Assembly (NCBI GenBank): GCA_963720265.1
Contig: CAVRET010000002.1
Coordinates: 584,704-648,703, forward strand
Length of the DNA: 64,000 nt
Direction of reading: 5' to 3'
DNA from: an uncultured bacterium
GTDB taxonomy: Bacteria; Patescibacteriota; Saccharimonadia; UBA4664
The notes beneath the pieces are model-generated. The model had not been told where the DNA came from and ran no database searches. It saw only the letters and a program-made list of their open reading frames with translations. Numbering within the stretch: the first letter of the stretch is position 1; the number at the start of each line of letters is the position of its first letter. Below are positions 8,288 through 37,186 of the stretch, in pieces. A program made the translations under genes and the position numbers.

Positions 8288-8362
8288 TGGTAGCCCCACG
8301 GGGAGTCGAACCCCGGTTGCCAGGATGAAAACCTGGTGTCCTAACCGCTAGACGATGGGGCC
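8288..8362 (-). tRNA. tRNA-Glu (anticodon UUC)
   Basis: Reverse complement GGCCCCATCGTCTAGCGGTTAGGACACCAGGTTTTCATCCTGGCAACCGGGGTTCGACTCCCCGTGGGGCTACCA forms a cloverleaf, has a TTC anticodon in a 7-nt loop, a GTTCGACTCC T-arm and an encoded CCA. Confidence 0.85.
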
Positions 8363-16188: not shown

Positions 16189-18711
16189 TTATGGGAACTG
16201 GCTAAGCAGCAATGCCGAAGTGCTCGTGGCGGCACCGCTGGGAGTTACCTCCATATCAACCCAGTACGTTTGTCCAAGTCCTTTAACATAAATATCCGGA
16301 TAAGCGTTGGGCGGGCCAACGGCAAATACCGCTTGTCCCTGCGTTGATCCACCTTGGTCAAAATTCGCCGGAGCTCCGGACCCGGTATATGGTGAAGTCG
16401 AGCTGGCTGCATAGATACCGGGCACGTGCATCACACCGTTGCGGATGCCGTCGAACGTCGGGCCGGCATTTTGGATGGCGCTTCCCGGGAACTGGTAGGC
16501 CGCGCCGATGTTGAAGTAGTAGAGTTGCTTGGCCGACCAGGCATCGGGAACGGCCGCGCTGTTGTAGACCGACACCCGGTAACGTCCGGCCGGCAGGGTT
16601 ACGCCTGTTAGTGCGCACGATACCCACCCCGAGCCGGCGATACCGCTCCAAGTCGGGCTGGTGTTACTGGCTACTATCGCCTGAGTGTCCTCGTCCCACA
16701 CGTCGCAGCGTGTGGCTAGCTGGGCGGTCCCGGACGGGCTGTAATACCAGATATTATTTACAGCACAGCTTTGGTTGAGCCGCATCTCCGTGCCAACGAC
16801 GTAGTCGACTGCCGAATCCCCGGTGGTGAATTGGTCGCCGTAAAACTTGTTTGGCCACGCGCGGTAGCTGCCGGTATAACCGTTTGGTGTGGTGGTGGTA
16901 ACCTGGATATCGATCCAGAAATTGGCAGAGTTGGATACACCCAAGGGGCACGTCGCAGACGGGTCAGTGCCGCCGACGGTAAATAGTCCTTGGCCGATAT
17001 TGCCACCGCCGTTGTATTGCGATGATCCGTATGACGAGTTGCCATCGGCAAAGGCCAGGATCGGGCCATTTTGGATGCCGTTAGGATGACCGCCTGCACC
17101 AAACGAGTCAACCGCGCCGGTCCCCGCACCGGACGTGTCTGAATCCGGAAAAGCGCCGTTAATGCCGGTCGCGGCAATGTAACGAGTAATTTCCGACAGC
17201 AAAATCGGCATTGGCAGCGCAACGTAATTCCACCCGGTCGACAGCGCGCCCGAGGTCACAACCGAGCCGGGCACCAGTGTTGTATCAGTAAAGTTAAGGG
17301 GGTTGATTTGCCAGAGGGCGAATTTCTGCGGCGCAGTCAAGCCGCCGGTCGGGCAGACCCAGTGCCAATAGCCCTCAAACCAACAATTGCCCTGGAGCGT
17401 CATAAAACCAACACCGGAGATAAAGTTGCCCGAGTACGACACAGGTGTCGTCGGCCCGTTCCCGGGCCGCCCGTCTTGGCCGTCCATGAAGCGGTAATTC
17501 GCCGCCGGCTCCGGCACCACCTCGACGTCGATCCAGTACAGCGCGTAGGTAAGGGTGGCATTGTCCGGATAGGCCCAGGTATTGGAGTTGTATGACATCT
17601 GCCCCGGGGAAGCTGCGCCATAGCCGGGTATGGTCAGAATGTCTTGCGTGAAACCGGAGCCATACATCTGTCCGGTGTTAAACATATTGTCCGAATACGC
17701 CCACCAGATTGAACCGCCGGCATTAAACGTGGCAACTTTATAATCACCGGCCGCGAGCGTGATAGCGGCGCTCCGGTAATCGCACTTAATCCACCCATTG
17801 CCGGCCGTTGCCGCACTACCGTCCACGTTCACCCAGGTTGGTGAGCTGTTGTCCGTCCCGGCTACAACCGTCTGACTGCCAACGTCCCAGACCGCACACC
17901 GCGTCGGCAGCACGGTCGCCCCCGACGGCGAGTAGTGCCAGATGGACGCCAGCTGGGCTGACTGGCTCAGCGAAAATTCCATCCCAAGTGTAAAGCCGCC
18001 GCTGCTGGTGTCCGTCTGAATCGGAGTCGGCACCGTCGGCCAGGCCCGCTCCGGCGTGCCCGGCGGAACCGCATCTGTCACCTGCACATCGAGCCATAAA
18101 AGGTCGTCTGCATCGTTATTATCGGGTTGGTGCACCGAAGCATCGGCGCCGTTGGTATTAAACGGCTGTTGGGGCCAAAACGTGCTCGCGCTGCTGCCGC
18201 TGGGGTAGGCCATAAGCGGCCCATTAGTGATGCCGTTGACGTATGGATCGCCCGACCCGAACTGATTTTTCGTGTCAGGAAAACCAATCGTGGTGCTGTA
18301 GCCTATCGCAGCCACGTATGGAACATTTGGGGTAAGCGGTATGGGGTTACAGGGAACAAAATTCCACGCCCCGGCTGTGAACGCGCCAGTCCACAGCACC
18401 TCAGACGCCGGAATAACGGTAGCGTCGGGGTAATCGTAAGCCTGCCACAAGGCAAAACCAATGTTCGTGTTGGTGTCGCCGCCGGTTGGCACCCACCACC
18501 AGTAGCCGTTGAAATAGAGACCGCCAGCAGTCACATTAAAAACCAGCCCGGCTACATAATTGCCGCTGTACGCCGTTGGTGAACCCGGCGGCTGGGTGCC
18601 TGAGGATCCAACCCCCGGGCGGCCGCTTTGGCCGTCCATTAAGCGGTATGTACTCACGATCTGTACTTCATACTGCAAACAATTATAGTGAGACCAGGCT
18701 ACTAACCACAA
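16189..18711 (-). CDS. large repeat protein with four DUF4082-like domains arranged (A-B)x2; no N-terminal signal peptide in the longest frame
   Basis: 840 aa. Repeats begin YRLMDGQSGRPG / YRFMDGQDGRPG (A) and GMEFSLSQ...IWHYSPSG...RCAVWD / GTEMRLNQ...IWYYSPSG...RCDVWD (B). Each ends in LLWLDVQV / LYWIDVEV / NFWIDIQV / TYWVDMEV, like the NYWVDVVF ending of DUF4082. The ORF-track start is a non-ATG (TTG) codon; the first ATG is at 18639. Confidence 0.55.
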   Translation of the reverse strand: MWLVAWSHYNCLQYEVQIVSTYRLMDGQSGRPGVGSSGTQPPGSPTAYSGNYVAGLVFNVTAGGLYFNGYWWWVPTGGDTNTNIGFALWQAYDYPDATVIPASEVLWTGAFTAGAWNFVPCNPIPLTPNVPYVAAIGYSTTIGFPDTKNQFGSGDPYVNGITNGPLMAYPSGSSASTFWPQQPFNTNGADASVHQPDNNDADDLLWLDVQVTDAVPPGTPERAWPTVPTPIQTDTSSGGFTLGMEFSLSQSAQLASIWHYSPSGATVLPTRCAVWDVGSQTVVAGTDNSSPTWVNVDGSAATAGNGWIKCDYRSAAITLAAGDYKVATFNAGGSIWWAYSDNMFNTGQMYGSGFTQDILTIPGYGAASPGQMSYNSNTWAYPDNATLTYALYWIDVEVVPEPAANYRFMDGQDGRPGNGPTTPVSYSGNFISGVGFMTLQGNCWFEGYWHWVCPTGGLTAPQKFALWQINPLNFTDTTLVPGSVVTSGALSTGWNYVALPMPILLSEITRYIAATGINGAFPDSDTSGAGTGAVDSFGAGGHPNGIQNGPILAFADGNSSYGSSQYNGGGNIGQGLFTVGGTDPSATCPLGVSNSANFWIDIQVTTTTPNGYTGSYRAWPNKFYGDQFTTGDSAVDYVVGTEMRLNQSCAVNNIWYYSPSGTAQLATRCDVWDEDTQAIVASNTSPTWSGIAGSGWVSCALTGVTLPAGRYRVSVYNSAAVPDAWSAKQLYYFNIGAAYQFPGSAIQNAGPTFDGIRNGVMHVPGIYAASSTSPYTGSGAPANFDQGGSTQGQAVFAVGPPNAYPDIYVKGLGQTYWVDMEVTPSGAATSTSALLLSQFP

Positions 18712-19473: not shown

Positions 19474-20496
19474 ATGAGGGCGCCTACGCAAGCTTTCCGC
19501 TGGATTGGCCTGGCCGCATACGCGGGCCTCGCCACGCTCATCATCCTCTTTCTCACGCCCATTGGTGGTTGGAAGGCCCTTGATGTGCTCACGGGAAGCA
19601 TGCGTCCGGCAATTCAGCCGGGCGCCCTTGTCATCATTCATCGTGTACCACTCAGTTCGGTTCATCCCGGCAATGTGGTCACCTATGTTAATCCGCACGA
19701 TACCAAAGAGCTGATCACCCACCGGGTGCAGTCAGTCAATAAGGTCAACGGCGTCACCATGGTGACGGTCAAGGGCGATGCCAATACCATCGCCGACCCG
19801 CCGTTTGCCGGGGGCCAAATTCAGGGCCGGGTGGCAACGATTGTGCCCTATGCCGGTCGTGTGCTCAATGTTATCCACAATCCCTATGGTCTGGCGCTGC
19901 TCGTCATTTTGCCGGCCCTATTTGTAATATGGATCGAAGCTAGGAGGTTGATGGGCGTGCTGGTTGAAGAATCCGACCCCGCGACGCCCGGCTCAGGCCG
20001 CTCCGGCGGTCTGCCGGTAGCAATCCGCTTTCGCCGCCCCCGGGAGATTAAGCAAACAGACGCAGGCCGACCACTCGACGGTATGCGCCGGCTCGCGGTG
20101 TTGCCGGTCGTGGCCATCGCCTTGGCCGTATTCGCGGTTGGAGTAACACTGGCCGCGCTCACCAGCACGGTCTCGCTCACCGGCAACAGCTTCCAAACCC
20201 AAGTCAGCGGCTCGCCCAGCCCCACGCCTTCTCCTAGTGGCAGTCCAACTCCATCGCCCTCGGGTTCGCCCACGCCGTCCGGCTCACCGTCGCCGACTGC
20301 TTCACCTTGCCCCACCAATGTCTCAATTACTGACACCGGTGCCGGCTCTACTAACATCGTGCGCTGCACCTCCAAGACCATCATTACCAACTCAAATTCA
20401 AACAACGTAAGCGTTACGAATTCAAATCATCAGTCCACCTCGGGTGGCGGTTCCAGTACCAACACTCAGACCACCAACATTAACGTCACCTATTAG
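19474..20496 (+). CDS. sipW: signal peptidase I, SipW type (paralog 2) with a TM, PS-linker and Cys-motif C-terminal extension
   Basis: TGSMRPAIQPGALVII, VVTYVNP, ITHRVQ, VTVKGDANTIADP; extension SPSPTPSPSGSPTPS...PCPTNVSITDTGAGSTNIVRCTSK. Confidence 0.7.
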   Translation: MRAPTQAFRWIGLAAYAGLATLIILFLTPIGGWKALDVLTGSMRPAIQPGALVIIHRVPLSSVHPGNVVTYVNPHDTKELITHRVQSVNKVNGVTMVTVKGDANTIADPPFAGGQIQGRVATIVPYAGRVLNVIHNPYGLALLVILPALFVIWIEARRLMGVLVEESDPATPGSGRSGGLPVAIRFRRPREIKQTDAGRPLDGMRRLAVLPVVAIALAVFAVGVTLAALTSTVSLTGNSFQTQVSGSPSPTPSPSGSPTPSPSGSPTPSGSPSPTASPCPTNVSITDTGAGSTNIVRCTSKTIITNSNSNNVSVTNSNHQSTSGGGSSTNTQTTNINVTY

Positions 20497-20543
20497 GGCT
20501 TCGCGTGAGGCGGCCTTGGGCGACGATTTGTAAAACGTCTTCG

Positions 20544-21371
20544 TTATTTCAATAAGCTCGAAGGGGATGGATTATAGCCGAAAAGTTCTAAGTTCAACTC
20601 AATTACCTCCGGAGTAACAAGACTAGCGTACAAGTTTGCGGCGTCTCTATTGCGGGCGAATAGATGCCATCTGTCAGTAACATCCATGTCTTGAGCACGA
20701 CCCTGTAGAGTGAGACCATCGAATGAACTACCCTCACCAATGCCAGAGACCTGGTTGATGCCTAGGTCTTCGTTTAAGAATCCCAGCTGAATTGCAACCC
20801 TATCTCTGTATTCCTTATTCTGAAACCATTTATCGTAGAGAATAGCAGCGAAATCACCTTCAGACATATTAACGATAGCATGCGCGTTTTCTACCCAAAC
20901 ATCACGCACATCCATCAGGCCAAGGCGATGAATGTTACGCGTCTCGCCTCTAGCCTCGACATTACGGCGTCTCTGTATTTGTGAAGCAATGAGGTTGGGG
21001 AAATTTCTTAATAACAACACGTCAATGCAATTGCTTCGTGTAAAAGTCGTATAATGCTCCTGTAGCCTTCGTTTGGCGAACATCAGGTCTTCATAGCTTA
21101 CGACTACATATCTGGGTCTGCCACGATCAATTGCTGACAGCATGTAGTCTACGTCAAGATACGGTTTTGAGGGATCGGCTGGATGACGCGGTTCATTTAC
21201 GGCATTAAAATGCGCAACCCCACCTTTCTGGCCACGGCTTAGTCCTTCACTAAGCCATCCTATCAAGGCATGATTGCCTGAACGTTTAAGTCCGAAAAAA
21301 TGAATGTACGTCACACTTTGTGACTGACCAGCAATGATAGCTTCTGTACGTAACGAATCTACTTCTGGCAT
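20544..21371 (-). CDS. hypothetical protein, possibly a sulfotransferase-like P-loop fold
   Basis: FFGLKRSGNHALIGWL resembles the 5'-PSB PKSGTT motif of sulfotransferases; lower GC than the surroundings. Confidence 0.3.
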   Translation of the reverse strand: MPEVDSLRTEAIIAGQSQSVTYIHFFGLKRSGNHALIGWLSEGLSRGQKGGVAHFNAVNEPRHPADPSKPYLDVDYMLSAIDRGRPRYVVVSYEDLMFAKRRLQEHYTTFTRSNCIDVLLLRNFPNLIASQIQRRRNVEARGETRNIHRLGLMDVRDVWVENAHAIVNMSEGDFAAILYDKWFQNKEYRDRVAIQLGFLNEDLGINQVSGIGEGSSFDGLTLQGRAQDMDVTDRWHLFARNRDAANLYASLVTPEVIELNLELFGYNPSPSSLLK

Positions 21372-21754
21372 CAGAAGTGCATTATGAGACAGCTACGCAC
21401 CTAACACAACTAACCGTTGGGACCACCGCGAATATAGGGGGCTAACGCCTATCAAACTGCACTATAGATCTAAAGTTTAACTACTTGATCTATAGTCTGG
21501 AGCTTGTAGCAAGAACATAGTTTCTAGCCACGCCGTACATGACCAGCTAGAGCTAGTCAATATAGCTAGAACCGGCCTAGCCGTGACCACAAGGTTCTAG
21601 ACCGTCATGCTCAGCCAAGAACCTACGTGCTCATTTGTCAACGCTCTTCTCGGAATTGGCTGCATGGCGTCAAGATGTACCTGTTTCGGTCTATGCACGA
21701 GTGAAGACTCAATCGTGCTACGCGCTTATGCTTAAATAGGGTACAGTTAAGCCA
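21372..21754. promoter_or_regulatory. long AT-rich divergent intergenic region
   Basis: 383 nt without a convincing ORF between the minus-strand gene start and the GH16 gene. Confidence 0.25.
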
Positions 21755-22894
21755 ATGCCAAAAACTCGAAATAAAAATCTGCCAGGACGCAATGGTCTCG
21801 GCCGTTATTTGCTGGGCGCTGTGGTGATATTAGCTTCCATTGTCATCGGTCTAGTGGTGGTACACGTGAAAGCGGCCGGGCTGGTTGGGGATCTCAATGA
21901 TGACGGTGTGGTCAATGTGCTTGACTTGTCGATTCTGCTAAGCGACTGGGGGCAAACAAACGCCGCCATTGAGCAAAACCTCGGACAAACCGGGCCCGTT
22001 GGCGTCATTGACCTGTCGATCTTGTTGTCTCACTGGGGGGATACTGCCTCGACACCCACACCTTCGCCCAGCCCGTCCCCAGTCGCGGCAGGTTGTGTCA
22101 GCGGCGGCGTGGTTGCACCGTGCATCGGCGGAGCTTCTACGGGCGCCAGCGGTTGGGGGACACCCATATTTGATGACGAGTTTAATGGGACTAGCCTGAA
22201 TACCAGCAACTGGAGTACAGGGTGGTTTGGTAGCGGAATCACCGGTCCAGTCAATAGCCTTGAAGATGATTGTTATAACCCGGACCTCGTAAGTATTTCC
22301 GGGGGTTATCTTGATGAGCAGATTATTCAACAAACCTGCACTGGGCGGCTTGGATCGGAACCATACTCTGCAGGCTACATAACTTCAATGACCTCGGGTG
22401 GAGGTAGTGACTTGTTCGGCTTCACTTACGGCTTCATAGAAGCCCGTATTTACTTCCCGGCAGCGTCCAACGGTGAAGTTGCCAACTGGCCGGCTTTCTG
22501 GCTACAAAGTCTGCATGACGGCAGCCAAACTGCGCCGAATACGGAAATAGATATCGAGGAAGGCCTGCATGGAGCGCTAAGGTGGCATGTGCTTGGGGCC
22601 GGAGGAACTACGGTTTGTACTGATGGCGACACTGGACCAGGATGGCACACTATCGGCCTTGATTGGCAGCCTGGTTCGGCGACTTTCTACTATGACGGTG
22701 TAGCAGTTGGGAGTACTTGCACAAGTAGTGCGCTTGATCCTGCTAATACTGGAGAAATGAGAATAGCTTTGGGCGAACAGACTAGCGCCACCATTGCAGG
22801 GCCGCAGACCGCACCACAAACAATGCAGACCGATTACGTTCGGGTTTGGCCTACAACTGGTACAGTTTATACATACGATGGCAGCTCAAATTAA
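21755..22894 (+). CDS. secreted glycoside hydrolase family 16 (laminarinase/beta-glucanase-like) with an N-terminal dockerin-like repeat pair
   Basis: N-terminal TM/signal, then DLNDDGVVNVLDLSILLSDWGQT and GPVGVIDLSILLSHWGDT (dockerin type I-like). PSPSPSP linker; GH16 catalytic motif EIDIEE, and FWLQS. Confidence 0.6.
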   Translation: MPKTRNKNLPGRNGLGRYLLGAVVILASIVIGLVVVHVKAAGLVGDLNDDGVVNVLDLSILLSDWGQTNAAIEQNLGQTGPVGVIDLSILLSHWGDTASTPTPSPSPSPVAAGCVSGGVVAPCIGGASTGASGWGTPIFDDEFNGTSLNTSNWSTGWFGSGITGPVNSLEDDCYNPDLVSISGGYLDEQIIQQTCTGRLGSEPYSAGYITSMTSGGGSDLFGFTYGFIEARIYFPAASNGEVANWPAFWLQSLHDGSQTAPNTEIDIEEGLHGALRWHVLGAGGTTVCTDGDTGPGWHTIGLDWQPGSATFYYDGVAVGSTCTSSALDPANTGEMRIALGEQTSATIAGPQTAPQTMQTDYVRVWPTTGTVYTYDGSSN

Positions 22895-31398: not shown

Positions 31399-32733
31399 AT
31401 GAAGTGCCCTAACTGCGGCAATGAGATGGTACAGTCACGCGCCGGCTGGCTCTGTTTGGCTTGTGGGCACGTTGTAACCGAAAATAAGCCCCTCGTGCCA
31501 ACGGCTACCATCACCAAAGGTAGCGGCAACGCCGACGCAAGCTCGAGGCCGGAAGAGCCTCAGGCATCCCCGCTCTCGCCACCGGCTCCAGTTTCTGAAC
31601 CGTCAAATGAGGAGACTGCAGATACATCGGACGATCAAGCAGATGCTCAGGTCGATGATAATACAGACAACGAGGAAGACACTCAGGCCGCGCCGCCCGA
31701 ACCGCCGGTTACCATGCCTGCGACCACCGATCCTAATTCGCAGGCGGAAGCTGCCGAAGAATCTTCAGCGCCAGCTGATGCAGCCGAATCGCCGGCTACC
31801 GTGGCGGCCGATGCGATGCCTGAAACCGATGCCAAGTCGGAAGCGGAACCAGAGGCAGACTCAGGATCAAAACCAGCAGCGGAACAGCCAATGGAACCGG
31901 AGCCGATAACCGTCAGCGAGCCAAAGCCCGAGTCGGCACCGGAAGATGCGTCAGAGGCCAGCGCTATACCCGAACCTGACGATCAGCCAACATCTCAGCC
32001 AGAACCGGCCGCCGACGATTCCGGATCAGTGAGCGAACCGGTTCCATCGGCCGAGCCGGCAGTTGGGCCGCCAATTGAGGCGGAACCTGCACCTTCCACC
32101 GAGCCGGACTCTGCACCGGTGACCAACCCAGAACCACAACCAGAACCAGCGCCACCGGCGCCGTCGCAGCCGCTCCAACCCCCGGCTGGTCCAGTCGCCT
32201 CAGATAACCAATCCGCACAATCCCCCGACATGCTCAACGCCAAGCCCCCGTTCACACCAGCTACTCATCCGCGTCCGGTGAGCCCTGCGGTGAAGGCCGG
32301 CGCCACTGCGGTAATAGCCGTCGTCGTGCTTGCTACTGGTGTCCTGTACTTCTCGCACTCGTCCAAACTCGCCGCCGATCATACATTGTCTACTGCACCT
32401 GCAGCCTCAGCGCCGACCTCACCATCTGCCATTGCCGAGGCTAGTCGCGACGCGGAGCGCAAGGCCGATGTCGCCGCCCTGCTCAGAGCCTATCAGGCTG
32501 CAGTCACAAACAGCCCTTTCCCGACCGCGCCGCCCTCCGTAAGTGTCAACAGCGTTGATCCTACCACGGGCCAAAATTACGTCATCATCACCACCAAGCC
32601 AACTTCGCTTGGTCAGGTCCAGTATCAGGCAGGAGCAACCTGTGGCTCAACCAGTGTCACCAACGGCTCGCTAGCCTTGTCGACCGAGCTCGAATCCGGC
32701 TCAACCTATTGCGTCGACGCTCAATCTCAATAA
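31399..32733 (+). CDS. zinc-ribbon protein with a long acidic/Pro-rich disordered region, one TM helix and a C-terminal extracellular domain
   Basis: MKCPNCGNEMVQSRAGWLCLACG; about 250 aa of E/P/A/S low complexity; TM helix AGATAVIAVVVLATGVLYF. Confidence 0.45.
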   Translation: MKCPNCGNEMVQSRAGWLCLACGHVVTENKPLVPTATITKGSGNADASSRPEEPQASPLSPPAPVSEPSNEETADTSDDQADAQVDDNTDNEEDTQAAPPEPPVTMPATTDPNSQAEAAEESSAPADAAESPATVAADAMPETDAKSEAEPEADSGSKPAAEQPMEPEPITVSEPKPESAPEDASEASAIPEPDDQPTSQPEPAADDSGSVSEPVPSAEPAVGPPIEAEPAPSTEPDSAPVTNPEPQPEPAPPAPSQPLQPPAGPVASDNQSAQSPDMLNAKPPFTPATHPRPVSPAVKAGATAVIAVVVLATGVLYFSHSSKLAADHTLSTAPAASAPTSPSAIAEASRDAERKADVAALLRAYQAAVTNSPFPTAPPSVSVNSVDPTTGQNYVIITTKPTSLGQVQYQAGATCGSTSVTNGSLALSTELESGSTYCVDAQSQ

Positions 32734-32794: not shown

Positions 32795-35700
32795 TTGCGC
32801 TATCATCAGGAGGTGCATCCACTCCTTTCTGAACTCAACGACGAACAACGCCGCGCCGCCGAGACCATAAACGGCCCGGTACTCATTTTGGCCGGCGCGG
32901 GTAGCGGCAAAACCAAAGCTCTCACGCACCGCATCGCCTACCTGGTAGCAGAAAAGCGCGTCCGGCCGTTGAACATTCTGGCCGTCACCTTTACCAACAA
33001 AGCCGCGGCCGAAATGCGCGGCCGTGTTCTGGGTTTGCTCAACCTGCCGCCGGACAGCCGTAGCTATTTCCCATTTATCGGCACGTTCCATTCCATCGCC
33101 CTCAGGCTGTTACGCGCCAACGCTGCCGTAGCCGGCTTGCCGTCCAACTTCCTCGTTTTCGATGCGGCTGATTCGCAGGCCGCGGTCAAACGTGCCCTCC
33201 GCAGCGCTGCCGTTGACGACAAGAAATTCACTCCCAATCTCATTGCAAACCTCATCTCCAGCGCCAAAAATGAACTCATCGGGCCAAAAGCTTATGCCAA
33301 ACTGGCGGCCGGTCAGGCTGGGAGTGTAGCCGCCAAAGTGTATCCCCTCTACCAAGCCATCTTGGCCGAAGCCGGCGCGCTCGATTTCGACGACCTGCTT
33401 TTCCGCACGGTTGAACTCCTGCGTGACAATCCCGAAGTTTTGGCCAAATACCAGCAGCAATTCCAATACATCATGGTCGATGAGTATCAAGACACCAACC
33501 ATGCCCAGTACCAATTCACCAAATTGCTGGCAGCAAGCCATCATAATCTCTGCGTCGTGGGCGACGACTGGCAGTGTCTGCCCCCGACCACGGTAATTGA
33601 AACTGCATCAGGTCCCAAGCGAATCAAAGATGTTGCCAAAGGCGAGCTTGTACGAGCCGCCGCAGGATTCGGCAAGACAGCCATGTTTAAAGTGCGAAAC
33701 ACTCGTGAAACATGGTTCAACGGCGGTTTAATTCAGCTCAAAACAGCCTCCGGACGCGAGCTTACTTGCACACCGGGCCATATTCTTTTTGCGAAATTCG
33801 CGCAAACGGACGCTTACTTCGTATATCTAATGTACGCGCATAAGATTGGATATCGAATCGGCGTTGCCAAGGGAACAAGGTTTGACGGAAAACTCTACGA
33901 TATTGGACTAAGAGTGCGCGCAAATCAGGAACGCGCTGATCATATATGGGTACTCAAAGTATGCGACGACAAGGCCGAGGCCATGTTTACCGAAAGTCTC
34001 CTCGCTTATAACTATGGCATTCCCATGACTGTCTTCCGGGCCTACGCAAACCGGCGCATGAAGTTCGATCAACTGTACATTGACCGGCTGTATCAGGAAA
34101 TCGACACCGAAAAACGGGCCAGGCATCTAATGGCCGATGTCGGGCTAATGTTCGACTACCCCCACTTCTCGCCGCAGGCGACAACGAGAAACGGGCGCAA
34201 GCGGGTGAGCATCAACATTGTGCTTTTTGGTGACCGACGAACAACGGCACAAAGCCCATGGTCTGCAAGTCGAATGTCCGCCAACACTTCTGATACGCAA
34301 GACCTGCAGTGGTTCGAGCAGGTTGGGTATTCGATACGTCCCGGAAGAGCGGATACATACCGCTCGGAAACACAAAATCTAGATTTCGGCAAGATTGAGC
34401 AAACACTGCAATCAATGGGTGTCGAGCATACTGACAATCTAGAAATAAGCCGGTGGGCTTATCTCACCGATCATAGATTTAGTTTCATGCCTGCAGCCCA
34501 AATCCACCGCGAAATGATGGTGGCTCAACTAGATTCCAGCGGCCAGCTAGTTGAGGACAGGGTAACAGCCACAAGCAAAGTGAACTATTCAGGTCCGGTC
34601 TTCGATCTTGACATCGATTATGTGCACAACTATCTAGCAAACGGTATTGCGGTCCACAACTCCATTTATTCCTGGAGGGGCGCAAATTTCCAAACAATCC
34701 TCGATTTTGAAAAAGACTATCCCGAAGCTACCATTATTAAACTTGAACAGAATTATCGCTCCACCAAGCCGATACTAGATGCCGCTCACGCCGTCATAAC
34801 CAAAAATCGCGTCCGCAGTGATAAAAAGCTCTGGACCAATCGCGAAGGGGGAGCGGGCCTGGGCATCGCCAACGTTTACAACGAAATCCAAGAGGCCGAG
34901 TGGGTGGTCCGGCAAATCCGCGACCTGCAAGTGGCCGAAAAGCGTGAGCTCTACGATTTTGCCGTTCTATATCGCACCAATGCACAGTCGCGCTCACTCG
35001 AGGAAGGCTTCTTGCGCGCAGGTGTTCCCTACAAAATCGTCGGTGGCACGCGTTTCTACGAGCGCAAAGAAATCAAAGACGCGCTGGCCTATCTGCGCTT
35101 CATCTACCAGCCCGACGACGCCGTCAGCTTCGGCCGCATCATCAATGTACCGGCCAGGGGTTTAGGTGATGTTACCCTCCAGCGCCTTGAACAGTGGCGC
35201 GCAAACGCAGCCGGCACAGCCCGTCCCACCAACTTACTCGACGCATCCCGAACGGCCGACCAAATCCCCGGCCTCCAAGCCAGGGCCGCCGTAGCACTCA
35301 AGGCCTTCGCCGACCTCATCGACGAACTTCGCACGAAGTCCACCTCGCTCGATCCGGCCGCCCTCCTTGACCTCACCTTAAAGCGCTCTGGCTACCTGGC
35401 CTCGCTCGACGACGGCTCCATCTCAGCCGCCGATCGCATCGAAAACGTCAAAGAGCTCCTGTCTGTCGCCGAAACCTACAACGGCCTCGGTCTCCAAGCC
35501 TTTCTCGAGGAAATCGCCCTCATCTCCGACCTCGACAACTATTCCGAATCCACCAATGCCGTCACACTCATGACCCTCCACGCCGCCAAGGGCCTGGAGT
35601 TTCCCGTCGTCTTCATCGTCGGCATGGAAGAAGGCATTTTCCCGCACTCGCGCGCGCTGTTTGATGCCGAGCAAATGGAGGAGGAGCGCCGATTGTGTTA

Positions 35701-36130
35701 CGTCGGCTTCACTCGGGCCAAGGAGCGCCTGTTTCTCGTTTACGCCAACTCGCGCTTGCTCTACGGTGCCACCAACCACAACCCGCCCAGCCGTTTCCTG
35801 CTCGATATCCCGCCTGAGCTGCAGGCGGCTGGCAGTGAATGGGGCAGCGCCTCCCGTGGCACGGCCGTTACCGGCCACTCGGCGGGCGCCGGCAGTTGGT
35901 CGCTCGGCACGCTCACTACGACCGGCCTACCGGCCACCGAGGCCCAGGCCGCGGCTCATCGCGAAACCATGCTTGGCCTCGATCTTGCCCCCGGCGACCG
36001 CATCCGTCATGCCAAATTCGGCGAGGGCCTGGTATCAGAAGTCGCGGGCGACGAAATTACCGCCACGTTCGAAGGCCTGGGTCAAAAGCGCCTCTCCCTA
36101 GCATTCGCTCCAATTGAGAAAATCAGCTAA
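32795..36130 (+). CDS. uvrD: ATP-dependent DNA helicase UvrD/PcrA, interrupted in-frame by an intein
   Basis: Walker A AGAGSGKT; motif II VDEYQDTN; motif III split as VVGDDWQ / SIYSWRGA around the intein; helicase C-terminal motifs LHAAKGLEFPVVF, VGFTRAKERL. Confidence 0.8.
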   Translation: MRYHQEVHPLLSELNDEQRRAAETINGPVLILAGAGSGKTKALTHRIAYLVAEKRVRPLNILAVTFTNKAAAEMRGRVLGLLNLPPDSRSYFPFIGTFHSIALRLLRANAAVAGLPSNFLVFDAADSQAAVKRALRSAAVDDKKFTPNLIANLISSAKNELIGPKAYAKLAAGQAGSVAAKVYPLYQAILAEAGALDFDDLLFRTVELLRDNPEVLAKYQQQFQYIMVDEYQDTNHAQYQFTKLLAASHHNLCVVGDDWQCLPPTTVIETASGPKRIKDVAKGELVRAAAGFGKTAMFKVRNTRETWFNGGLIQLKTASGRELTCTPGHILFAKFAQTDAYFVYLMYAHKIGYRIGVAKGTRFDGKLYDIGLRVRANQERADHIWVLKVCDDKAEAMFTESLLAYNYGIPMTVFRAYANRRMKFDQLYIDRLYQEIDTEKRARHLMADVGLMFDYPHFSPQATTRNGRKRVSINIVLFGDRRTTAQSPWSASRMSANTSDTQDLQWFEQVGYSIRPGRADTYRSETQNLDFGKIEQTLQSMGVEHTDNLEISRWAYLTDHRFSFMPAAQIHREMMVAQLDSSGQLVEDRVTATSKVNYSGPVFDLDIDYVHNYLANGIAVHNSIYSWRGANFQTILDFEKDYPEATIIKLEQNYRSTKPILDAAHAVITKNRVRSDKKLWTNREGGAGLGIANVYNEIQEAEWVVRQIRDLQVAEKRELYDFAVLYRTNAQSRSLEEGFLRAGVPYKIVGGTRFYERKEIKDALAYLRFIYQPDDAVSFGRIINVPARGLGDVTLQRLEQWRANAAGTARPTNLLDASRTADQIPGLQARAAVALKAFADLIDELRTKSTSLDPAALLDLTLKRSGYLASLDDGSISAADRIENVKELLSVAETYNGLGLQAFLEEIALISDLDNYSESTNAVTLMTLHAAKGLEFPVVFIVGMEEGIFPHSRALFDAEQMEEERRLCYVGFTRAKERLFLVYANSRLLYGATNHNPPSRFLLDIPPELQAAGSEWGSASRGTAVTGHSAGAGSWSLGTLTTTGLPATEAQAAAHRETMLGLDLAPGDRIRHAKFGEGLVSEVAGDEITATFEGLGQKRLSLAFAPIEKIS
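33575..34660 (+). mobile_element. intein (362 aa) inserted in UvrD helicase motif III
   Basis: Begins Cys (CLPPTTVIET...GELV, block A), TCTPGH (block B), ends NGIAVHN followed by extein Ser (block G); the central ~200 aa could hold a degenerate or unrecognised endonuclease domain. Confidence 0.75.
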
Positions 36131-36184: not shown

Positions 36185-36817
36185 TTGCCGCCCCATCAAC
36201 CTATAGGAGCATTCATGGAGCAGGGCAAAAGCACCAGCCTCGATCACGATGCTACCGCAACCGCCAGGGACGTCGCTGGGCAGATTGAAAAGCTCAGTTA
36301 TCTAGTTCAGATGCTGCTCACAAGCGCATCTCTCATAGTTACCCGGCTCACTCTGACCCAGCAGCGGCGAGCGTTTGAGCTCGTCTGCCCACTTGTACAG
36401 CAGCTCGTCGAGCTTACCGATCTGAGCATCCTGTGCCAGGGGTTGGCGTTGTCGGCCCACTTGAACCTCGGTGCAGCACCGGAGCCAAAAGTGAGCGAGA
36501 CCGATCGGCTGTGCGAGGGACTGAATAATGTATCGCAACAGCTGCTCATGATCGCACAACAATCCCAAAGCCGGCTGTCTCAAGCCCAGCAACGGCAAGC
36601 CTGCGATGCTGGGCACGATCTTGCTCAGCGGGTCGCGGAACTCTCCGAGCTCAGTCTCACCTGTCGCCAGATTGCACTAGCAAGCCGGCTTGGCAAAGCA
36701 CCGTCACGATCTCGGGGTGCGTCCTCACGAGCCTACGACCGCGCTACCGAACCCCTTGAGGTCAGCAATCCAGACATTGACCGGGTCATCGAGCTGCTGC
36801 ATGCCCGTACGCAGTGA
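36185..36817 (+). CDS. hypothetical coiled-coil/alpha-helical protein
   Basis: 210-aa ORF, Leu/Gln-rich heptad-like repeats. Confidence 0.35.
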   Translation: MPPHQPIGAFMEQGKSTSLDHDATATARDVAGQIEKLSYLVQMLLTSASLIVTRLTLTQQRRAFELVCPLVQQLVELTDLSILCQGLALSAHLNLGAAPEPKVSETDRLCEGLNNVSQQLLMIAQQSQSRLSQAQQRQACDAGHDLAQRVAELSELSLTCRQIALASRLGKAPSRSRGASSRAYDRATEPLEVSNPDIDRVIELLHARTQ

Positions 36818-36832
36818 CCGGCCGAAGACCAG

Positions 36833-37186
36833 GTGGTTGAGCCGCCACTCAGCGCAACTCAAAGGTTTGTGATCGCGGTCTTGCGGCTTGCCGCAGACCC
36901 TTCCAACCGCATGGTCACGCTCCGAGTCCGGCCGGCCGACCTGATCGGGAACTGCCAGATGGGTCCTGCCATCGATGCCCGGCGGATTGCGCTCTGGGTA
37001 CTGTGGCACGAGACCAATCTCACCAATGACCAACTCTCCAGGTTGATCGGCAAACCGGTCTCCAGGGTCAAGATCTACCTGACATATATTCAAAAACTAG
37101 CTGGTGTCAGCGCTGACCGGTTGCGCCAACTCCAAGCCATCGTCGCTGCCGCCCACGCGAGGTCGGACCAGGCGGAAAGAGAATGA
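36833..37186 (+). CDS. small protein resembling the DnaA C-terminal DNA-binding (HTH) domain
   Basis: ARRIALWVLWHETNLTNDQLSRLIGKPVSRVKIY resembles the DnaA domain IV pattern (R.IAMYL.RELT..S...IG..FG.RDHTTV). Confidence 0.35.
   Translation: MVEPPLSATQRFVIAVLRLAADPSNRMVTLRVRPADLIGNCQMGPAIDARRIALWVLWHETNLTNDQLSRLIGKPVSRVKIYLTYIQKLAGVSADRLRQLQAIVAAAHARSDQAERE

Follow-up and report, generated by a model that had tools for sequence, protein, structure and literature searches.

Inteins of UvrD-type helicases have been described before: a survey of 2015 listed 16 of them in five phyla (PMC4760082), and a UvrD intein has been reported for the phages SPO1 and CampHawk (PMC3868849). We analysed a stretch of 64,000 nucleotides, hereafter the window, whose coordinates are used throughout, from contig CAVRET010000002.1 of an uncultured Saccharimonadia bacterium, in which the helicase gene pcrA is interrupted in frame by 362 codons. 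As judged from its sequence, the interrupting segment (33575–34660) is a genuine class-1 intein within motif III of the chromosomal PcrA/UvrD helicase of this member of the Patescibacteria, or Candidate Phyla Radiation (CPR). The best overall explanation of the locus, to which we assign a probability of roughly 0.8, is a class-1 intein whose middle domain is a probable homing endonuclease. PcrA is a core helicase of repair and replication that in this genome must mature via protein splicing, and the pcrA gene here merits annotation as an intein-containing precursor. The main interest lies in the middle domain, which is large, conserved and confidently folding, and has neither a Pfam, NCBIfam or PHROGs model nor a solved relative.

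The intein and its host helicase

The precursor open reading frame (ORF) at 32795–36130 (+) encodes 1111 aa from a TTG start and was matched by Pfam and NCBIfam models. Pfam thus identified UvrD-helicase (PF00580, E = 5e-82), UvrD_C (PF13361, E = 2e-74) and PcrA_UvrD_tudor, and the NCBIfam PcrA model TIGR01073 gave the unspliced precursor 829 bits, under its cut-off of 911. On these sequence matches, the host protein is likely PcrA rather than another UvrD paralogue. The public gene call, protein P0168, is the source genome's own copy, located on a 1.1-Mb contig and 100% identical over the extein; at 1105 aa it is six residues shorter than the ORF, which fits a start at about 32813. The exact precursor protein is without a name in public sources, and its named close relatives are called only "UvrD-helicase domain-containing protein" or "PcrA".

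Translation across the boundaries reads ...LCVVGDDWQ, then CLPPTTVIET...YLANGIAVHN, then SIYSWRGANFQ..., and bases 33575–34660 (+) comprise exactly 362 codons without a stop. The N-terminal part of the Hint domain (intein aa 1–76; 33575–33802, +) starts with block A, CLPPTTVIETASG, and contains block B, GRELTCTPGHILF, in which the TxxH element is T66-P-G-H69 (TCTPGH). The C-terminal part (intein aa 301–362; 34475–34660, +) contains block F, GPVFDLDIDYVHNYLANG, and block G, IAVHN, so that the intein ends in ...VFDLDIDYVHNYLANGIAVHN, with penultimate His361 and terminal Asn362; the +1 extein nucleophile is Ser. We based the intein call on the curated thresholds of profile hidden Markov models (HMMs). 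The Pfam model Intein_splicing (PF14890) scored 37.6 bits on the intein alone against a gathering score of 35.8 (34.2 bits, just under that score, on the whole precursor), the NCBIfam model intein_Nterm (TIGR01445) scored 25.3 over aa 1–72 against a cut-off of 24.5, and intein_Cterm (TIGR01443) scored 23.3 over aa 341–362 against a cut-off of 15.6. In addition, the last 50–60 residues align with the Pho RadA and Spl DnaX mini-inteins. Both Hint parts were predicted by AlphaFold2 with a per-residue confidence (predicted local distance difference test, pLDDT) of about 90 or higher, and the top Foldseek matches of the intein model were endonuclease-bearing VMA inteins, PI-SceI and Hedgehog Hint domains (E 6e-7 to 1e-4). 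The splicing residues are also those that the family preserves: in 107 complete members, C1, G60, T66, H69, D344, H361 and N362 are each at least 90% conserved, Cys1 being present in 107 of 107 and the His-Asn end in 106, and position +1 is occupied by Ser or Cys in 106 (80 and 26, respectively) and by Ala in the remaining one.

SF1 (superfamily 1) helicases of the UvrD/Rep/PcrA family carry a motif III of the form GDxxQSIYxxRGA. The 260-aa N-extein (32795–33574, +) ends in ...VVGDDWQ, the first half of this motif, and the C-extein (34661–36130, +, stop codon included) opens with the +1 Ser and the second half, SIYSWRGA, which places the insertion point between Q and S. In-silico excision yielded a spliced extein of 749 aa, which aligned with PcrA of G. 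stearothermophilus (1pjr; E = 9e-186) without a gap at the junction (vgddwq-siyswrga against vgdadqsiyrwrga). The syntenic, intein-free orthologue P0169 of locus L161 (766 aa, 87% identical) reads VGDDWQSIYSWRGA uninterrupted, and its peptide is identical to that of the window for 11 residues before and 15 after the junction. The DNA of this empty allele reads GGCGATGACTGGCAG up to the insertion point and TCGATCTACTCCTGGCGC beyond it. Comparison with L161 also delimits a presumptive homing site, whose left half, the extein DNA abutting the insertion point, would lie at 33530–33574 and whose right half at 34661–34705 (both +); the intein-less site is given as ...GTCGGCGATGACTGGCAGTCGATCTACTCCTGGCGCGGC..., or, with the junction at its centre in L161, as GATGACTGGCAG followed by TCGATCTACTCC.

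These results bear out a first-pass annotation made from the letters of the sequence. It had placed a 362-aa intein at 33575–34660, inside the VGDDDQSIYxWRGA motif and with Cys1, TxxH, HN and a +1 Ser as canonical boundaries, and had suggested Hint-domain HMMs and alignment with an intein-free helicase as checks. All of its coordinates and residues were correct on re-translation, blocks A, B, F and G are all present, the three intein models exceed their curated cut-offs, and the junction is clean in both 1pjr and the read-through orthologue. It had also judged 362 aa to be large enough for a middle domain. Indeed, a domain of 224 aa (intein aa 77–300) lies between Hint blocks B and F.

Family spread, empty sites and decay

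We searched a profile of the middle domain alone exhaustively with HMMER against 1.84 billion cluster representatives, which afforded 1,680 proteins at E <= 1e-3, 174 of them at E <= 1e-30. A word-indexed search with the intein had returned 11 relatives, all named ones being partial Saccharibacteria helicases; the rare, lineage-specific element suggested by that result was overturned by the 1,680 exhaustive profile matches. A complete intein at exactly the same site (...GDxxQ / C......HN / (S/C)IYxxRG...) was found in 109 of the best 150 matches, whose hosts are very diverse UvrD-family helicases, some with two or more inteins. By tblastn the middle domain was detected in 65 annotated phage genomes, some of which already bear the label "intein-containing UvrD". 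In Escherichia phage PaulScherrer (MZ501100.1) the gene is already annotated as "intein-containing UvrD / Rep family helicase precursor", and its copy agrees with that of the window in insertion site (VVGDEFQ/C...HN/CIYQFRGS), Hint blocks and middle domain (profile E = 2.8e-31). Since same-site copies are widespread and UvrD-intein annotations exist, the window intein is a further, apparently intact member of the large known family of "UvrD inteins" that uses one insertion site. Copies in E. coli phages, such as PaulScherrer/Bas60, make homing directly testable there.

The middle domain follows Hint block B in every match examined, including two extein-less derivatives, and no free-standing middle domain occurred among the profile matches, the short ones being fragments or extein-less, intein-shaped proteins. 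The two derivatives, P0090 (362 aa) and P0115 (367 aa), consist entirely of Hint-N, middle domain and Hint-C, have Met in place of Cys1 and lack the terminal His-Asn; judging by sequence, they may be stand-alone intein derivatives that can no longer splice, in the manner of HO endonuclease, or else pseudogenes. The UvrD-like helicases P0124 (1210 aa), P0048 and P0064 contain two Hint regions each; of the two inteins of P0124, the first bears a DUF559/Vsr-like nuclease, and the middle domain analysed here lies in the second. P0066 and P0080 are of comparable size (P0048, P0064, P0066 and P0080 span 1.8–2.5 kaa), with the intein far from the N-terminus. The middle domain is also present in P0103 (1466 aa), whose exteins have no Pfam match but whose junction, VGDQYQ/C...HN/CLYGWRKA, is still motif-III-like. 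Among the structural matches of the middle domain in the BFVD was A0A8S5TZY8, a phage protein annotated as "adenine specific DNA methyltransferase" (Foldseek E = 5e-8).

We then compared the pcrA locus among close relatives. With the spliced extein as the query, the 120 closest PcrA proteins were P0168 and 119 others at 63–87% identity, the latter, where an organism is named, coming from Saccharimonadia, Saccharibacteria and, once, a "Patescibacteria group". In all, 104 of the 120, including the nearest relative P0169, had no insert, and 16 had one at this site, ten full-length (about 360 aa) and six shortened. The inserts of P0191, P0222 and P0262 (243–245 aa) have lost exactly the N-terminal half of the middle domain and the connector that follows it, one insert of 196 aa retains only the tail of the middle domain, and two are mini-inteins of 185 aa. 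The splicing residues Cys1, block-B His, His-Asn and +1 Ser are kept in 15 of 15 delimitable inteins of relatives; the sixteenth insert, that of P0239, falls outside the junction pattern and was excluded from this count. P0169 (L161) and P0170 (L163) share the pcrA gene neighbourhood of the window, with a subtilase gene and a 145-aa ORF on the upstream side of L163 and, downstream in both, an AA-kinase (pyrH-like) gene, indicating orthology of loci with and without the insert.

The intein also differs from its host gene in composition and divergence. With a GC content of 0.503, it falls within the lowest 3.3% of equal-sized segments (mean of the whole window, 0.576), and at third codon positions its GC content (GC3) of 0.53 lies below the 0.67 and 0.70 of the N- and C-exteins. 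The same offset is seen in L163 (intein 0.55, exteins 0.68 and 0.72). Between the window and P0170, protein identity is 87% for the extein and 58% for the intein; in the nucleotide comparison, identity is about 80% for the exteins, and the intein aligns over 591 nt only, at 65%. The source genome's own copy aside, no other intein found exceeds 60% identity to the window intein. Taken together, the empty sites, the full and shortened copies and the low GC3 fit a homing cycle in which an intein invades a site, becomes fixed, loses its nuclease through decay and finally disappears. All the states involved, from the empty site through full and nuclease-deleted copies to the mini-intein, are found at one orthologous locus within one bacterial class, which makes the family a ready data set on the homing cycle. 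The first-pass annotation had taken the intein as a mark of selfish-element traffic in this lineage; the traffic is supported by presence and absence among syntenic pcrA genes and by the decayed copies, but it is no peculiarity of the lineage, since bacteria and phages share the site.

The middle domain and its probable function

The middle domain comprises three parts, delimited by conservation and the AlphaFold2 model. The N-half (intein aa 77–165; 33803–34069, +), a candidate catalytic core, is predicted to form beta-beta-(hairpin)-alpha-beta-alpha, in the order beta-hairpin, small hairpin, helix, strand and long helix. It is followed by a two-helix connector (aa 166–196; 34070–34162, +) with conserved T178, L185 and P196, which ends in a conserved YPH motif whose His, H197, is the first residue of the C-half. 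The C-half (aa 197–300; 34163–34474, +), predicted as beta-beta-alpha-beta-beta-alpha-beta, is a candidate DNA-recognition part. Mean pairwise identity is highest in the N-half (0.45), intermediate in the Hint parts (0.36 and 0.43) and lowest in the C-half (0.27). Of the 89 N-half columns, 15 reach a conservation of 90% or more (Y84, L85, M86, G92, R94, G96, G111, R115, E119, D122, W125, E140, G148, P150 and F154), and every invariant residue is retained in the window copy. The structure prediction that the first-pass annotation had proposed gave a confident fold, with a mean pLDDT of 90.7 and a predicted template-modelling score (pTM) of 0.85 from a 48-sequence alignment. Of its two suggestions for the central domain, "degenerate or of another type", the latter is favoured, as the domain is intact and its N-half is better conserved than any other part of the intein.

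On the basis of the sequences and the predicted model, the middle domain is probably a homing endonuclease of no classified family, because it combines a conserved core with a variable module, occupies the endonuclease position and has been deleted repeatedly with the splicing residues kept. Tentatively, and with less than even confidence, we go further and propose an unclassified, apparently intein-specific homing-endonuclease family in at least 1,680 UvrD-family clusters of bacteria and phages, with a Tyr/Arg/Glu/Asp/His core, either a new fold or a far-diverged GIY-YIG domain, and a recognition module resembling SUI1 or half of a LAGLIDADG domain. For the C-half, the weak Foldseek matches in the PDB were SUI1/eIF1 folds and LAGLIDADG pieces of about 80 residues (E 0.01–0.1), and the consensus gave a B5-domain match in Pfam below threshold (24.6 against 28.6 bits). 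Several points weigh against the endonuclease reading. The window's middle domain was matched by no NCBIfam model and, even with a limit of E <= 10, by no Pfam model, its sole match in PHROGs was a chance-level one to a family of unknown function (E = 0.08), the 48-sequence profile found nothing convincing among PDB sequences, and Foldseek found no PDB structure at E <= 1e-3. The domain is assigned to no nuclease family, and the term endonuclease draws on position, conservation and decay patterns and not on homology; splicing and cleavage alike are deduced from sequence features, and the greater divergence of the intein than of the extein could reflect relaxed constraint instead of transfer. 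No description of the middle domain was found in the open-access papers searched.

Among the alternatives, the one that would dispense with an intein altogether, making the insert a lineage-specific helicase subdomain as the first-pass annotation had itself considered, deserves next to no credence. Nothing was found in its favour, and it is refuted by Hint blocks A, B, F and G, intein HMMs above their curated cut-offs, the predicted Hint fold and a nearest orthologue, at 87% identity, that is entirely without the insert; the same insert, moreover, occurs in unrelated UvrD-family helicases and in phages. A different objection accepts the intein and denies the nuclease. The domain might bind DNA, regulate or serve as structure in an immobile, vertically inherited intein, perhaps acting as a post-translational switch of PcrA. 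In line with this, nuclease homology is not established, the C-half resembles small nucleic-acid-binding folds (B5, SUI1), and inteins are concentrated in the ATPase motifs of proteins for replication and repair, positions for which a regulatory role has been proposed (PMC4760082). We nevertheless regard a non-nuclease as very improbable. The intein is present in some close syntenic orthologues and absent from others, and repeated deletions of the domain have spared the splicing residues, which suggests that the domain serves the element and not the host; furthermore, the intein has a foreign composition, inteins of phage helicases carry the same domain, one Foldseek match being the phage protein annotated as a methyltransferase, and the domain's set of invariant Tyr, Arg, Glu, Asp and His residues is what an active site typically contains. 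LAGLIDADG enzymes, by far the commonest intein endonucleases (10.1101/2025.01.02.630785), offer a further candidate in the form of a remodelled or degenerate copy with eroded signature motifs. The modelled C-half does follow the alpha-beta-beta-alpha-beta-beta-alpha order of one LAGLIDADG half-domain and weakly matches I-TnaI, I-CreI, I-CvuI, I-LtrI and I-SmaMI (about 80 aligned columns, E 0.02–0.1), and a non-significant alignment with the TliVMA intein sets helix alpha2 opposite the LAGLIDADG helix. However, that alignment is carried by Hint block B (E 0.1–0.45), full-length structural alignments give template-modelling (TM) scores of about 0.2 with a root-mean-square deviation of 16–17 Å, and SUI1/eIF1 folds fit the C-half at least equally well. 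Consistent with the first-pass remark that no LAGLIDADG motif is evident, no Pfam LAGLIDADG model matches the window domain or any of the 48 members at E <= 10. Conservation peaks in the N-half, where both the leading helix and the acidic-Gly motif are lacking, and a remnant that had degenerated would not exceed the rest of the intein in conservation. A LAGLIDADG remnant is thus improbable and was not accepted, the HMM match being absent and the weak fold similarity limited to the C-half.

The closest call concerns the GIY-YIG nucleases, of which the N-half might be a very divergent member with the C-half as its DNA-binding module, an I-TevI-like bipartite design within an intein. We examined this with Pfam (single sequences, the 48 members and their consensus), NCBIfam, Foldseek against the PDB and BFVD, and hhalign, in which 110 N-halves were compared with 69 I-TevI-like and 80 UvrC domains alongside column-shuffled and positive controls. 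Suspicion arose from the pattern (F/Y)VYLMY-x5-G(Y/F)RIG...R...E. The predicted topology is beta1-beta2-alpha1-beta3-alpha2, and in the model Y84, (Y/F)93-R94-x-G96, R115 and E140 would fall on the GIY Tyr, the YIG element, the helix-1 Arg and the helix-2 Glu of I-TevI. PF01541 was the sole Pfam family matched by more than two of the 48 members (five at E <= 10, best E 0.0088) and the sole one matching the N-half consensus, colinearly over profile positions 1–68 of 78; annotated GIY-YIG/group-I-intron endonucleases appeared in BFVD (E 5e-3 to 2e-2), and the best local hhalign alignment set E140 on the catalytic Glu of I-TevI and UvrC. However, PF01541 reached only 13.5 bits on the consensus against a gathering score of 22.6 (E 0.094) and did not match the window domain alone, and the motif and HMM evidence share the same information, so that they are not independent. 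The hhalign probability was 4.8% against the I-TevI-like set, with one of 40 column-shuffled controls scoring higher, and 1.1% against UvrC N-terminal domains. Since the positive control, I-TevI-like against UvrC, reached 89% (P = 2e-6), the test had power. No GIY-YIG structure was among the top 50 PDB matches of Foldseek. With sub-threshold hints on one side and a failed calibrated comparison on the other, membership appears doubtful and was not accepted.

Other nuclease types fared no better. The endonuclease HMMs that the first-pass annotation had recommended returned no LAGLIDADG, HNH, Vsr or other nuclease model at an accepted level, and HNH, Vsr-like/PD-(D/E)xK and EndoVII enzymes were excluded by the absence of any such Pfam or PHROG match. 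A hidden out-of-frame or antisense endonuclease of the ShiLan type (PMC11855218) was rejected, as the five other frames of 33575–34660 contain 11–18 stops each; the domain is likewise unrelated to the phage-methylase ShiLan domain. The longest stop-free stretch in these frames is 100 codons and includes a 93-aa antisense ORF (34156–34437, −), which is most likely due to chance because the other frames are stop-rich and the in-frame product is conserved.

A class-1 intein with a probable homing endonuclease suggests the following mechanism. The pcrA gene would be translated as a 1111-aa precursor with an interrupted ATPase core. Splicing, as the conserved residues imply, would begin with an N–S acyl shift at Cys1, helped by the block-B Thr and His, and proceed through transesterification onto the +1 Ser and cyclisation of Asn362, helped by His361, to an O–N shift that yields contiguous, active PcrA of about 749 aa. 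From the anatomy of the middle domain, its N-terminal core may cut intein-less pcrA at or near the motif-III coding sequence, with the variable C-terminal beta-alpha module reading the DNA, and recombinational repair would then copy the intein into the cut allele.

Neighbouring genes and comparison with known systems

The interval between pcrA and the AA-kinase (pyrH-like) gene differs among the three syntenic loci and is a variable spot beside the intein-bearing gene. In the window (36185–37186) it contains unannotated ORFs of 210 and 117 aa, in L161 a 188-aa ORF and a Sigma70_r4 protein, and in L163 (3001–6378, the P0170 locus) DUF3800 and NUDIX proteins. Directly upstream of pcrA, a 444-aa ORF (31399–32733, +) without a Pfam match has an N-terminal CxxC...CxxC (zinc-ribbon-like), about 250 low-complexity residues rich in Pro, Ala, Glu and Ser, and then a hydrophobic stretch. 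Elsewhere, no Hint match was found in ten ORFs scanned, which included the five largest besides pcrA. The second largest ORF of the window (16189–18711, −; 840 aa) has no Pfam match at E <= 1e-5, nor does a 275-aa ORF (20544–21371, −) in the lowest-GC stretch (20350–21900, about 0.457 against the mean of 0.576), a stretch that may likewise have entered by horizontal transfer. The window has a single tRNA gene, for tRNA-Glu (UUC), at 8288–8362 (−).

Six structural classes of homing endonuclease have been listed (PMC3384342). GIY-YIG domains were said to be unknown in inteins in surveys of 2006 (PMC1564403) and 2009 (PMC2677866), and the inteins of a 2025 survey had endonucleases of LAGLIDADG, HNH, Vsr-like and EndoVII-like types (10.1101/2025.01.02.630785). 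If the proposed family holds, the domain would be either a GIY-YIG nuclease in frame within an intein or a further structural class of homing endonuclease, new in either case; an endonuclease here would moreover constitute an uncharacterised site-specific nuclease scaffold. The window intein resembles inteins with non-canonical endonucleases (HNH, Vsr-like/DUF559, and out-of-frame or antisense types; 10.1101/2025.01.02.630785, PMC2677866, PMC11855218) in carrying non-LAGLIDADG cargo, whereas its domain is in frame, has no HNH, Vsr or EndoVII match and lies where no other frame is open for more than 100 codons. With the LAGLIDADG inteins PI-SceI (1vde) and TliVMA/PhoVMA (7qss, 7qst, 7qsu) it shares the order of Hint-N, inserted domain and Hint-C, the class-1 residues and the logic of the homing cycle, and these are its best whole-intein structural matches (E 6e-7 to 1e-4); in contrast, its inserted domain has neither LAGLIDADG motifs nor an HMM match, and only its C-half is weakly like a half-domain.

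The GIY-YIG enzymes (I-TevI, 1ln0/1mk0; Seg proteins; the N-terminal domain of UvrC) resemble the middle domain in a likely bipartite build, a conserved small N-terminal core with a variable C-terminal DNA-binding part, in the order of conserved Tyr, Tyr-x-x-Gly, Arg and Glu, and in a predicted beta-beta-alpha-beta-alpha arrangement. Unlike them, the window domain has one more beta-hairpin, placed after strand 2 and before helix 1, and it fails the Pfam threshold and the hhalign comparison. The nearest systems are the UvrD/Rep inteins of bacteria and phages, for which none of the sources (PMC4760082, PMC3868849, MZ501100.1) gives the middle domain an endonuclease type. The window copy differs from them in residing in the chromosomal pcrA of a Saccharimonadia bacterium, whose phylum is not among the UvrD-intein phyla of PMC4760082, but it shares with them the host protein family and, in 109 of the top 150 profile matches, the very same insertion site.

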